Made by a program: the position numbers and the translations under genes. The notes beneath the pieces are model-generated. The model saw nothing but the letters and a program-made list of their open reading frames with translations. It ran no database searches and was not told the origin of the DNA. From Candidatus Micrarchaeota archaeon (GTDB taxonomy: Archaea > B1Sed10-29 > JAJRYS01), in NCBI GenBank assembly GCA_964643685.1, contig CAZXTN010000001.1, positions 135,936 to 199,935 of the forward strand: DNA of 64,000 nucleotides. Direction: 5' to 3'. Below are positions 10,499 through 64,000 of this stretch, piece after piece (position 1 is the first letter of the stretch; each line of letters opens with the position of its first letter).

Positions 10499-10692
10499 GC
10501 GGTGGTCGCATAGTCCCTCGTAAAAACGAAGTTTTTTCGTTGGGTGCAATGGCTATTGCGCCAGCCTGGAAACAACCCATAAAAATACAAAAAGGTTGAC
10601 TGCAAGCTGGTGTCCTCCGGGGCACGCGAGTTCAAGTTTGCGACAAGGTTCCCTCGTCGAACTTTTCGCAAGCGAAAATCTCGCCCACCGCG
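10499..10692 (+). tRNA. tRNA-Ser(GGA) with three introns (about 10514-10549, 10572-10604, 10637-10678)
   Basis: Acceptor stem GCGGTGG/CCACCGC with G73, anticodon stem CCAGC/GCTGG, long variable arm, T stem GCGAG/CTCGC. Confidence 0.85.
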
Positions 10693-10707
10693 CTTTAGAA
10701 AGATAAA

Positions 10708-29592: not shown

Positions 29593-30266
29593 TTGACATA
29601 CAATACGCCCTTCCATTGTTCATAGTGCTCATAAGCCTTGAAAGCAGCTCCTTGAACATGGAAGGAGCAGTGTCAGCCCTCTTAATGGCTTACTTAATCC
29701 TGCTAACCCAAAACGTCTGGTGGTTCTTTTACTTACTAGCATTTTTCATAATAGCCATGCTTGGAACAAAATATGGAGAGAAAAAAAAAGAAAAAAAGAA
29801 ACTAATACAACAAACAAGAGGATCAAAAAACGTAATGGCAAACGGAGGAATAGCTCTTCTCATGGCTTTGCTTGGAGGCCCTTATGCAGTATACGGTTTC
29901 GTCGGCGCACTTGCAGCAGCAACAGCAGACACAACAGGTTCTGAAATAGGAGTGCTTTCAAAAACAAAACCAATAATGATAACAACACTCAAACCAGCAA
30001 AACCAGGAATAAACGGAGCAATTTCACTAAAAGGAACAATAGCAGCTGCAATTGCTTCCTTTTTAATGGGTTTAATTGCATTGACTCTTACAAGAGACTT
30101 TAACATTATATGGATAACAACAATAGCAGGCATGGCAGGAATGCTTGCAGACTCACTAATAGGAGCAGTGTTTGAAAACAAAGGATATTGGGGCAACTCA
30201 ATCACAAACATGTTCGCTACAACAACAGGAGCAACAGTAGCACTTTTATTAACAACATTAATATAA
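29589..30266 (+). CDS. DUF92/TMEM19 membrane protein
   Basis: NVMANG, ADTTGSEIG, NGAIS and DSLIGA motifs. Confidence 0.88.
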   Translation: MIDIQYALPLFIVLISLESSSLNMEGAVSALLMAYLILLTQNVWWFFYLLAFFIIAMLGTKYGEKKKEKKKLIQQTRGSKNVMANGGIALLMALLGGPYAVYGFVGALAAATADTTGSEIGVLSKTKPIMITTLKPAKPGINGAISLKGTIAAAIASFLMGLIALTLTRDFNIIWITTIAGMAGMLADSLIGAVFENKGYWGNSITNMFATTTGATVALLLTTLI

Positions 30267-30312
30267 AAAAATATAAATAAAAAACAAAACAATAAAACAA
30301 AAAATAAAAAAA

Positions 30313-30331
30313 AGTCCCGTAGTCTAGTGGC
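30313..30331 (+). repeat. Orphan exact copy of the first 19 nt of tRNA-Gln
   Basis: AGTCCCGTAGTCTAGTGGC is identical to 30468-30486. Confidence 0.92.
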
Positions 30332-30467
30332 TGCCCCTTTCTTTTTTCGAAAAAAGAAAGTGGTAAGTGTTGCAATTAACGAAGTTAATTGAACCATCAA
30401 ACAATCTTCGATTGTTTGCATGTAGCCCAAAGAAAAAACAGGACTGAGAGAAGTATAAACCAAAAAT

Positions 30468-30721
30468 AGTCCCGTAGTCTAGTGGCCAAGGATTCTGGCC
30501 TTTGGAACGTTTCAACGCCTTCAAAAAAAGGAGTTAAGCGTGGAAACAGCCAGAGACGGCGGTTCGAAACAAAGGGTTACACCCTCTTGACACCTGTCAT
30601 TGGGATGCGCTTGCGCTTACCCAATTGTCAATGATAAGGGAAGGGGGGTCAGGAGGACCCTGAAACTGGGGGGGAAACCGCAGGTGTCCCCCGCGGTTCG
30701 GCGAAACTCCGCCCGGGACTA
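30468..30721 (+). tRNA. tRNA-Gln(TTG) with introns at 37/38 (30506-30547) and 59/60 (30569-30707)
   Basis: Acceptor stem AGTCCCG/CGGGACT with A73, anticodon stem CTGGC/GCCAG, T stem GGCGG/CCGCC, BHB central helix TTCG/CGAA. Confidence 0.88.
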
Positions 30722-30840
30722 TAACCCATCACTTATTATAAAATCACTAACAGATTTACAAAAAGACCACTAAGCGAAGCGCATGTGGTCTGCGGGGAGA
30801 TCAGAAACTCCCTAGAAATGAGAGGGGCAGCAAGCCCCTC

Positions 30841-30869
30841 GCGTTTCGGAGAAACTCCGCCCGGGACTA
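30841..30869 (+). repeat. Orphan copy of the intron end plus 3' exon of tRNA-Gln
   Basis: 27 of 29 nt match 30693-30721; the last 19 nt are identical. Confidence 0.92.
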
Positions 30870-30897
30870 CTTAAAAATTCTTTTTTTTGCAAGAAGG

Positions 30898-31620
30898 TTA
30901 GAAGCTAGCTGTTGCTAGTCTCATTCCATTTTCATTAATGTCAATCAAATACTTGGACATTGGAAATCTTGTTGCTATCATTTTTCTAATCATGAGAGTT
31001 TGGTTTAAAGAATCTTGCCCAGGGTTGAAAAACAAGTCAATCACTCCATCAAGTACAAAAGGCTCAACTCCATACTCAGTTAAACCACCTGAAATGCTAG
31101 AAGAACCAGCTGTAGAAGTTTGCCTCTCAGCAACAAACAAAGTAGTACATCCTTTTTCTTTCAAAGAACGTGAAAGGTAATAAAGAAGAGTTCTGAATTT
31201 TGACTTGTTATTAATAGCCTGTGCAAGAGGAGAAAGAGAATCAAAAACAATTCTCTTAGCGCCTATTTCATTAATAACTTTGTTAAGCTGAAGGATAATT
31301 TCAGAATGAAGAGAACGTAATTCAAACTTGTCAAACTCCACAGGGTCATAAGAAGAAAAAATTAACTTGTTCTGCTTCTGTAAACTAACAATATCCCAAT
31401 TAAACCTTTCAGCATACCATTGAAAATCTTTTTCATAAGCTTCTACGCTAATCATAAACCCAGGTTCATCGTATAATTTAACGCCGTTGTACAAGTACTG
31501 TAAACTAAAAATAGACTTGCCTACACCAGGAGGACCTGTTAACAAAATAGAAGAAGGACGTGGAAAACCTCCTTCAATCAAGCTATCTAAACCAGGAATG
31601 CCTGTTTTAACCCTATCCAT
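30898..31620 (-). CDS. KaiC/RAD55-like RecA-superfamily ATPase
   Basis: KTGIPGLD, GPPGVGKS, RIVFDS and IRKM motifs. Confidence 0.9.
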   Translation of the reverse strand: MDRVKTGIPGLDSLIEGGFPRPSSILLTGPPGVGKSIFSLQYLYNGVKLYDEPGFMISVEAYEKDFQWYAERFNWDIVSLQKQNKLIFSSYDPVEFDKFELRSLHSEIILQLNKVINEIGAKRIVFDSLSPLAQAINNKSKFRTLLYYLSRSLKEKGCTTLFVAERQTSTAGSSSISGGLTEYGVEPFVLDGVIDLFFNPGQDSLNQTLMIRKMIATRFPMSKYLIDINENGMRLATASF

Positions 31621-63477: not shown

Positions 63478-63987
63478 ATGTATGAAAAAATAGTAATAAC
63501 AGGCACTCCTGGAACAGGAAAAACGACTCTTGCTGACAAGATAGGAGATTATTTCAAAACGAGAGTCATTCACATAACAGATTACTTAAAGGAACATCCT
63601 GAATTGATTGAAAAAACAAGGAAAGACGGTACTATTGTCCCTAAAATGGACGAGCTTAGGAAAGCGCTGAACCAAGAGCAGGGGATAATAGATGGGCATC
63701 TTGCCTGTGAATTCAAGTTAAGGAATTCTTTTGTTATTGTTTTAAGAACTCGTCCAGATGAATTGAAAAAAAGGCTTAAAGAAAGGGGTTACAAGCCGAA
63801 GAAGATAAAGGAGAATATTGAAGCAGAGGCTCTTGATTATTGCACTCAAAAGGCTGAGGAGAATTTCAAAGCAGTTTATGAAATTGACACTACAAGCAAG
63901 ACGCCTAAAGAGACTTTTGACACTGCTTTGAAAATAATTTACGGGACTTCGCAAGGAGATAAAGTAGATTTTTCAGAATACTTGTGA
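63478..63987 (+). CDS. AK6/Fap7-family kinase/ATPase
   Basis: GTPGTGKTT, IDGH and RGY...KIKEN motifs. Confidence 0.92.
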   Translation: MYEKIVITGTPGTGKTTLADKIGDYFKTRVIHITDYLKEHPELIEKTRKDGTIVPKMDELRKALNQEQGIIDGHLACEFKLRNSFVIVLRTRPDELKKRLKERGYKPKKIKENIEAEALDYCTQKAEENFKAVYEIDTTSKTPKETFDTALKIIYGTSQGDKVDFSEYL

Positions 63988-64000
63988 AGAAATTGGTTTT

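Follow-up and report, generated by a model that had tools for sequence, protein, structure and literature searches.

A tRNA-Gln gene bracketed by copies of its own ends

The window is the whole 64-kb stretch of DNA that we analyzed (G000:C1:135936-199935). It comes from a genome, here G000, of 695,104 bp in 12 contigs, with 36% G+C and 91.75% completeness, and DNA of this genome is present in hydrothermal vent metagenomes. At 30468-30721, the window holds a complete tRNA-Gln(UUG) gene with two introns, for which the cloverleaf was built by hand. Each end of this inner gene occurs a second time as an orphan piece, with a structured block lying between the orphan and the gene. The features are given below in window coordinates.

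30307-30331, + strand: outer 5′ orphan, consisting of 6 leader nt and nt 1-19; copy 1 of the 5′ direct repeat
30332-30428, + strand: 5′ module, recognized by its fold z-score and an 89% identical copy elsewhere
30334-30365: first hairpin of the 5′ block, T-rich and palindromic, with an oligo-T run
30369-30426: two AT-rich hairpins of the 5′ module
30429-30467, + strand: promoter-like leader of the inner gene, common to the tRNA-Gln(CUG) leader
30468-30486, + strand: inner 5′ repeat (exact 19-mer), copy 2 of the direct repeat
30468-30505, + strand: exon 1, nt 1-37, with the anticodon TTG at 30502-30504
30506-30547, + strand: intron 1, 42 nt, at the canonical 37/38 position by the manual cloverleaf
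30548-30568, + strand: exon 2, nt 38-59
30569-30707, + strand: intron 2, 139 nt, at 59/60, from a module profile match and a splice motif identified by hand
30708-30721, + strand: exon 3, nt 60-73; with the preceding GAAAC it forms copy 1 of the 3′-side direct repeat
30722-30759, + strand: spacer with TTATAAAA at 30736-30743
30760-30855, + strand: 3′ module, three GC-rich hairpins and an intron-like tip ending in CGGAGAAAC
30856-30869, + strand: outer 3′ orphan, a copy of nt 60-73; copy 2 of the direct repeat is 30851-30869

An earlier sequence-only reading of this locus had noted an exact copy of nt 1-19 upstream of the gene, and this is confirmed: the 19-mer occurs exactly twice in the window (30313-30331 and 30468-30486), while 0 of 100 shuffles reached two matches. 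That reading had also described a copy of the 59/60 junction and 3′ exon downstream. This copy is real as well, as judged from the repeat and from the 18-mer AAACTCCGCCCGGGACTA, which occurs only at 30704-30721 and 30852-30869 and gave 0 chance matches in 100 shuffles. With their flanks, the repeats extend to 25 nt with 1 mismatch on the 5′ side (30307-30331 and 30462-30486) and to 34 nt with 3 mismatches on the 3′ side (30688-30721 and 30836-30869).

The assembly of the locus can be checked against Logan contigs from X1 and X2, which belong to two studies. In both, 29900-30378 and 30820-31300 were matched with 0 differences, and the part between them was covered at 30366-30827 in X1 and 30381-30827 in X2, again with 0 differences. 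The locus is therefore reproduced as three pieces but not as one; the contig breaks fall only within the repeated modules, which share exact stretches of 47 nt and 52 nt with other copies. None of the Logan contigs reaches from one end of the locus to the other, so the k=55 assembly is what links the three pieces in full; the match of each orphan to its own neighboring gene lends further support to this linkage. Depth in X1 was 69.6 for the unique inner part, compared to 86.4 and 99.4 for the flanks. Among the contigs from four runs, we found no alleles lacking either insert.

The inner gene and its splicing

The inner gene is missed by ARAGORN and by Rfam at gathering score. In fact, neither tool reports a tRNA gene anywhere in the window, although at least two are present. 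Rfam gave 0 matches to any known RNA family in the window at gathering score, and a permissive search (E up to 10) of 30200-30950 returned chance-level matches only. When the introns were removed in silico, ARAGORN called tRNA-Gln(ttg) for 88 of 941 border variants, and the cloverleaf formed both with ARAGORN and by hand, as is the case for a cis-spliced gene. A Logan contig in X1 and X2 skips exactly 30506-30547; its flanks are unlike the window, and it is probably from another organism.

At the 59/60 junction, the T-loop TTCG (30563-30566) can be paired by hand with CGAA (30702-30705), giving 4/4 central pairs and bulges of AA/A and AC/T. The inner gene thus has a bulge-helix-bulge with two 3-nt bulges and a 4-bp helix, in a relaxed version in which the intron-side outer helix does not form. 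G000 encodes a splicing endonuclease EndA domain (115.8 bits; G000:C1:21078-21338) as well as the RtcB ligase (559.7 bits). The best matches to this RtcB came mostly from bacterial MAGs and did not place the lineage; the organism is probably a small DPANN-type archaeon. The gene-proximal side of the 5′ module carries the promoter-like leader (30429-30467), for which a promoter function is inferred. The leader and the first 39 nt of the inner gene share 86% identity over 78 nt with G000:C1:107542-107619, where the leader of tRNA-Gln(CUG) is homologous. Gln(CUG) itself has a separate gene at G000:C1:107581, which is complete, contains one intron, and has an acceptor stem of its own, AGCCCTG.

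The modules and their tie to the 59/60 intron

Both blocks fold as the sequence-only reading had drawn them. The 5′ block forms three hairpins closed by GGCUGC/GUAGCC (z = -5.96), and the 3′ block forms the three hairpins named at the time (z = -6.29); in each case, 0 of 200 shuffles were as stable. The oligo-T hairpin of the 5′ module lies directly 3′ of the outer 5′ orphan. A copy of this module with 89% identity is found at G000:C4:566-668, behind another orphan tRNA 5′ piece. For the 3′ module, eight full copies, which are related rather than independent, show compensatory changes at 12 of 23 predicted pairs, so the fold is under selection, either as RNA or as single-stranded DNA. GGGGCAGC belongs to the consensus of this module. 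The box TTATAAAA is present at 30736-30743 as previously noted; by eye, no comparable box precedes the other listed module copies.

A whole-genome search with 30300-30880 found copies of the 3′ block at C9:5820-5904 (98%), C4:33980-34074, and C3:66380-66470, with further copies at C3:44261-44353, C1:114068-114126, and two in C6:36430-36615. Iterated profiles gave 13 matches in G000 for hairpin 1 and 13 for hairpins 2-3 with the tip, and copies truncated at the 5′ side exist. Most of the hairpin 2-3 matches (11 of 13) directly follow a gene on the same strand, and the 3′ end of that gene occurs again right behind the tip; one has no repeat, and the other is inside the 59/60 intron of the tRNA-Gln gene. 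The 3′ part of intron 2, 30642-30701 (G000:C1:166577-166636), reproduces hairpins 2-3 together with the tip, matching the module profile with E = 3.7e-8.

The tip mimics the 3′ end of a 59/60 intron. Among 17 tRNA orphans, 8 have 4/4 central pairs with their own T-loop (G-U counted), followed by a two-base spacer, and 2 more have 3/4 pairs by hand. At the Gln locus, the outer 3′ junction keeps the AC/T bulge and has 3/4 central pairs with the T-loop, compared to 4/4 at the inner junction. On the outer 5′ side, no bulge-helix-bulge is possible, since both strands of the central helix would be of identical sequence.

The Gln locus holds the module family in two states, as an orphan-linked insert at 30760-30855 and as part of a real intron at 30642-30701.

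The same layout at other genes

The layout of gene end, spacer, structured module, and second copy of the gene end recurs across G000. A repeat scan with inspection found 3′ orphans at 15 tRNA loci (18 orphans), while adjacent 5′ orphans are found at 5 tRNA loci; at least four loci have orphans on both sides, as Gln does. These counts were made partly by eye and can be compared to the 34 tRNA matches that Rfam gives. The loci are as follows.

3′ orphans: Gln, Leu-TAA (two), C1:112515, Asp, C1:220447, C2:1870, Glu, Leu (C2:16523)
3′ orphans, remaining loci: Arg, Ile, Gly-GCC, Gly-TCC, Val, C6:36186 (two), the C9 Leu-like gene
Adjacent 5′ orphans: Gln, Leu-TAA, C1:112515, C6:17124, C6:36186

The repeats are between 12 and about 62 nt long and have characteristic boundaries. 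The tRNA 3′ repeats begin in the T-loop (nt 54-60), with two exceptions that begin a few nt further on (C9 and Asp), and sometimes extend into the trailer, through the oligo-T run at Ile and Arg. Some repeats end just after an oligo-T run (Ile, C3:44264, and C2:1782). The tRNA 5′ repeats stop in the D-arm (nt 11-25) and sometimes include the leader. Other module types can take the same role, namely, a hairpin ending in GCTGAGGA and a T-rich palindromic hairpin. Orientation follows a rule that extends to a sister genus, represented by G004: modules at 3′ ends are in sense orientation in G000 and at 4 G004 loci, modules at 5′ ends are reverse-complemented in G004 (at L043 and twice at L044), and C6:36066 and C3:63939 of G000 carry the reverse complement of a hairpin-1 variant. 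With orientation fixed and mirrored at 5′ ends, the tip always abuts the orphan copy.

The tRNA orphans are nearly identical to their genes; between C1:112619 and 112696, one orphan turns a T-stem U-G pair into U-A. Orphans can also be dispersed, as at C4:545, a diverged copy of exon 1 and the intron start of tRNA-Ser(GGA), for which the complete gene, with three introns, is at 10499-10693 of the window. A search for the source of orphan piece B across 61 genomes (60 relatives and G000) found only matches with 2 mismatches, one of them the tRNA-Ser(GGA) of another genome, G003.

The layout is not confined to tRNA genes, as it is present at 7 protein-gene ends in G000. One of them, C3:63939, is a gene start with an exact repeat of 34 nt that takes in the ATG. 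At four 3′ ends of protein genes, 11 of the 15 codon changes between the copies are synonymous or stop-to-stop, which suggests that the copies had separate histories under selection. By hand, C3:66380 alone among the protein-gene repeats allows a 4-bp central helix, and this includes two G-U pairs; at the other protein-gene repeats, we did not find the central helix of the splice motif.

Relatives, other metagenomes, and viruses

The comparison with relatives, which the sequence-only reading had suggested, covered the tRNA-Gln loci of G004 and G001. The G004 locus is syntenic by eye, with a similar gene end on each side, and contains one tRNA-Gln without orphans or inserts, the sole intron of which is in the D-loop after nt 17. 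In G001, tRNA-Gln has only a 59/60 intron, and this is of another family. These differences between G000, G004, and G001 indicate that the introns of the tRNA-Gln gene turn over between genera of one family. The position of the G004 D-loop intron, after nt 17, is near the end of the outer 5′ piece, nt 19. Other tRNA loci of G004 (L039-L044) do carry orphans, next to modules of the same family. Two of these orphans, L039 and L041, carry changes that break the T-stem, and in G000, the C9 and Asp orphans have no T-stem strand or a broken one.

In other metagenomes, 9 of 59 tRNA-Gln genes (those that were contiguous with at least 150 nt downstream) repeat their last 14 nt within 400 nt, where the chance expectation is far below one; these nine come from far beyond the family of G000 and G004. 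Among 80 listed of 106 metagenome stretches, in which very near relatives are perhaps absent, none had two copies of the 5′ 17-mer and none held a second nested Gln locus. Viral contigs gave 3 matches to the hairpin-1 core, all unrelated in context and GC content, 0 matches to the K-type hairpin, and 0 to hairpin 3 with the tip. An 87-amino-acid open reading frame in a G002 intron had no Pfam match above cut-off.

Origin of the orphan gene ends

We consider it probable that the orphan ends are leftovers of the insertion of a hairpin-rich module at each end of the gene, and that the locus contains one working gene, the inner tRNA-Gln(UUG). Each end would have received a short, non-coding, hairpin-rich module from a genome-wide family, each insertion lying between two direct copies of the segment with which the gene begins or ends. 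This segment comprises the leader and nt 1-19 at the 5′ end, and the last 5 intron nt and nt 60-73 at the 3′ end. The repeat copy joined to the gene body would keep the gene intact, while the outer copy would be a displaced leftover. By analogy with the tRNA fragments that border integrated elements, the outer pieces are most likely by-products of insertion. The sequence-only reading had offered, as one of three options, the relic of an older intron-bearing allele into which a new allele was inserted. That option came closest, but single-ended cases of this kind abound at other loci of G000, and they speak for two separate insertions of modules, each duplicating a gene end, rather than for a new allele placed inside an old one.

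The sequences directly show the repeats, as well as families of structured modules that keep a fixed orientation and recur at other genes; the way of insertion is our inference. Our preferred mechanism, to which we would give somewhat less than an even chance if module insertion is correct, is that small DNA units carrying their own copy of a gene end, together with a promoter (5′) or trailer (3′), integrate through recombination, either site-specific or guided by short homology, within the T-loop or D-arm. We favor small DNA units because of the fixed orientation, the repeat boundaries in the crossover regions, the promoter on the 5′ side, and the 11/15 codon pattern. The layout could equally result from template switching during replication or from repair on an RNA template, each of which accounts for some of the features but not for others.

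As in attachment-site duplication, the inserts are flanked by direct repeats that overlap a tRNA end and start in the T-loop or D-arm. None of the inserts is long enough to code for a protein, and we found no integrase or recombinase in the inserts or the genome: in the 91.75%-complete G000, there was no PF00589 match for a tyrosine integrase, no PF00078 match for a reverse transcriptase, which a retroposed element would call for, and only a sub-threshold TnpB-type match (23.6 bits, cut-off 26.3). The G004 locus, syntenic by eye, is without both inserts, but it belongs to another genus and has the D-loop intron. The module family is multi-copy, as is that of a transposon or MITE, but single modules show no terminal inverted repeats, and the repeats are long and variable. 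An attachment-type model does not explain why the tips fit the 3′ half of the 59/60 motif, and it is hard to see how a site-specific enzyme would serve more than 20 targets with one module family. In addition, tRNA orphans that hardly differ from their genes, and protein-gene copies with a bias toward synonymous changes, would fit orphans that are still in use.

How do the alternatives compare? The nested locus could be an assembly artefact, in which strain alleles were combined into a chimera or the repeated modules caused a misjoin. The Logan contigs do break in the modules, none spans the locus, and the shared 47-nt and 52-nt stretches are near the k of 55; however, three pieces were reproduced without differences in two studies, the inner depth in X1 is similar to that of the flanks, and a misjoin would pair an orphan with a foreign gene, whereas orphans match their own neighbor at 15 loci. 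We give an artefact hardly any chance. We are equally disinclined to take the outer pieces as exons of a tri-split tRNA, trans-spliced to a middle exon encoded elsewhere, for which the sequence-only reading had suggested Gln(CUG). It is true that the pieces end near or at known intron positions, with an A/T-rich stretch before each, and that by eye pairing is possible between GCTGCCCCT, which follows the 5′ piece, and AGGGGCAGC of the 3′ module. Yet both Gln isoacceptors are complete genes, no second Gln-like copy of nt 20-37 or 39-58 was found with up to 3 mismatches in the 91.75%-complete G000, and the blocks belong to generic repeats that occur next to protein genes as well, with GGGGCAGC as part of the consensus of the 3′ module. 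Neither a need for the pieces, nor an exon elsewhere, nor a complementary leader and trailer was found; with Gln(CUG) complete, the tri-split reading is not needed, and no partner for it was found. Template switching, in which the polymerase would leave the gene, jump to a module copy, and return behind its starting point by microhomology between the tip (GGTTCGG...) and the T-loop, duplicating the end, requires no dedicated enzyme. It would be strand-symmetric like the orientation rule, the tip resembles a T-arm, and the tip junction is constant while the 5′ junction and repeat length vary. On the other hand, it predicts identical newborn copies and random decay of orphans, unlike the 11 of 15 synonymous changes; the microhomology is weak, by eye, at the protein-gene and D-arm junctions; and the promoter carried by the 5′ module goes unexplained. 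As the principal explanation, it has a slim chance.

Two further alternatives involve the modules as introns. The layout could be a scar of intron loss: a gene with D-loop and 59/60 introns would have had its end restored from a spliced copy or by RNA-templated break repair, leaving the rest of the intron and the old exon outside. A module with its orphan does look like the 3′ part of an intron with its exon, the module family is a component of a real 59/60 intron here, the G004 ortholog has its intron near where the outer 5′ piece ends, and some repeats stop just past an oligo-T run, where transcripts should end. However, no reverse transcriptase was found in G000, the inner gene still has its 59/60 intron, and a transcript copy would lack the promoter-like leader that the inner gene keeps. 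Neither the reversed module at 5′ ends in G004 nor a synonymous bias between a copy and its abandoned original would be expected, and we think this origin unlikely. Alternatively, the outer pieces may be alternative terminal exons of a read-through pre-tRNA, in which nt 59 is sometimes joined to the outer 3′ copy (or the outer 5′ piece to nt 20), with the orphans kept by selection as spare ends. This was another option of the sequence-only reading, and its two sides fare differently. On the 3′ side, the outer junction keeps the AC/T bulge and 3/4 T-loop pairs, most module tips in the genome fit the same pairing rule, EndA and RtcB are present, and the tRNA orphans are nearly identical to their genes, even the U-G to U-A change at C1:112619 versus 112696 preserving a pair. 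On the 5′ side, it is improbable, given the oligo-T hairpin directly behind the orphan and the impossibility of a bulge-helix-bulge. Moreover, splicing to an outer copy would yield the same tRNA as the inner gene does, the T-stem is broken in L039 and L041 of G004 and absent or broken at C9 and Asp of G000, and read-through is expected to be rare because several repeats include the gene's own oligo-T trailer (Arg and Ile). We allow alternative exons a small chance, and module insertion continues to be the explanation we prefer.

Relation to known systems

In archaea, attachment-site duplications of the SSV1 and pNOB8 types leave tRNA fragments at the borders of integrated elements. Split and tri-split tRNAs occur in Nanoarchaeum equitans and Caldivirga maquilingensis. 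The pieces of these split tRNAs likewise end at intron positions next to GC-rich sequence, but they are the sole source of their tRNA and their flanks are mutually complementary, whereas our pieces enclose a complete gene and have generic repeats as their flanks. Multiple-intron tRNA genes were reportedly found in Thermoproteales by Fujishima in 2010, with intron transposition proposed.

Among fragments linked to integration, a Caldiarchaeum tRNA-Thr fragment has a 1.8-kb insertion (Sugahara 2012, PMC3293823), and Thermococcaceae carry partial tRNA genes (van der Gulik 2022 preprint). The likeness to our loci lies in a complete tRNA and a direct-repeat end fragment with inserted DNA between them, in fragments that are sometimes scattered elsewhere, and in a proposed link to intron gain. 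The loci described here differ in that the inserts are about 55-190 nt, non-coding, and highly structured, with no integrase found in the genome; both ends of one gene and the ends of protein genes are hit; and one module family serves many targets and also occurs as a real intron. Repeated tRNA intron gain has been described in Asgard archaea, where the authors regard the route of arrival as still open (Goswami 2026 preprint). The Thermoproteales and Asgard cases resemble ours in having related introns at the D-loop and 59/60 positions of many tRNAs, with fast turnover; unlike here, those works are not known to report duplicated exon ends. Finally, Pyrobaculum calidifontis has MITE-like small-RNA elements (Lui 2018, PMC6009581), and direct repeats have been noted at intron borders (Rogers and Bendich 2025, PMC11782384). 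These share short, structured, multi-copy, non-coding elements or direct repeats adjoining inserted sequences. In contrast, our modules show no terminal inverted repeats, their repeats are long and variable and always include the gene end, and their orientation is fixed relative to the gene. A literature search of incomplete coverage found no published description of such modules.

Implications for tRNA intron gain

The origin of archaeal tRNA introns and split tRNA genes is unsettled, and G000 shows intron-like modules beside duplicated gene ends at many loci at once. Could these loci be intermediates of tRNA intron gain and tRNA gene splitting, caught in the act? We think this possible but doubtful. 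Along such a route, a module would land at one end of a gene along with a second copy of this end, with a tip that already has the 3′ half of the 59/60 motif, i.e., four T-loop-pairing bases and a two-base bulge. Later deletion of the proximal duplicate would turn the module into a spliceable 59/60 (or D-loop) intron, and separation of the pieces would give a split tRNA. If true, such intermediates would provide a concrete and testable route by which archaeal tRNA introns arrive. There is also a practical side, as standard tRNA finders miss genes like these and orphan ends can be taken for split-tRNA exons. The module-insertion process has hit many genes of G000, and it may show how tRNA introns arrive.

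Repeated and displaced gene ends

The single-unit layout, in which a gene end is followed by a spacer, a structured hairpin module and a displaced second copy of that end (the orphan), has undergone tandem growth at two other tRNA genes of the same genome (G000). At G000:C6:36186-36626 and G000:C1:110304-110596, each gene is followed by two consecutive module-plus-orphan units. An orphan may also lie on a different contig from its gene, as with a tRNA gene in the window:

Window 10499-10693, + strand: tRNA-Ser(GGA), a complete gene interrupted by three introns

Its introns lie in the D-loop (after about nt 16), in the 37/38 region and at 59/60, and the gene was detected by neither ARAGORN nor Rfam. 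A diverged orphan of its exon 1 and intron start is found at G000:C4:545.

A protein gene has received a module at its 3' end:

G000:C3:6596-6753: endonuclease-III-like gene, a probable assignment made by eye from the cysteine pattern of the C-terminus

The reading frame extends into the inserted module and stops inside it. The orphan retains 17 codons of the gene end with 4 synonymous changes, and its tail differs from that of the gene.

Introns in related genomes

Two tRNA genes from other genomes, the second from the sister genus (G004), carry introns:

L024 (G002:C77) 457-893: tRNA-Gln(CUG)-like gene with an intron
L041 (G004:C36) 66-155: tRNA gene with a doubled D-loop intron

The intron in L024 is about 370 nt long, follows the anticodon loop and contains an 87-amino-acid ORF (593-856) with two CxxC motifs. 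A Pfam search with this ORF gave nothing above the cut-off, so its assignment as a homing endonuclease is purely speculative. In L041, the D-loop intron (31-32 nt) is present as two tandem copies, and the intron found in the D-loop of the G004 tRNA-Gln belongs to their family.

Assembly traces and module distribution

Exact 55-nt duplications border 100-N gaps at window 63946-64000 and G000:C4:40522-40576; these are scaffolding traces and show that the assembly used k = 55. One such gap interrupts the tRNA at G000:C4:40464. An identical tRNA gene occurs on two contigs (G000:C1:99056-99125 and G000:C8:23267-23336), with flanks also identical over the full extent compared, which was 70 nt on the upstream side and 150 nt on the downstream side. 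This pair is either a real duplication or a product of redundant contig ends.

The T-rich palindromic hairpin, one of the G000 module types, also occurs in another genome (L046, G018:C14). There, a tandem repeat of the module (...CTCCTTTCTTTTTAGAAAAAAGAAAGT...) plus about 55 nt spans 229-401, directly 3' of a GC-rich gene, putatively 5S rRNA by its resemblance. Its presence in L046 means that this module type is common to a class.
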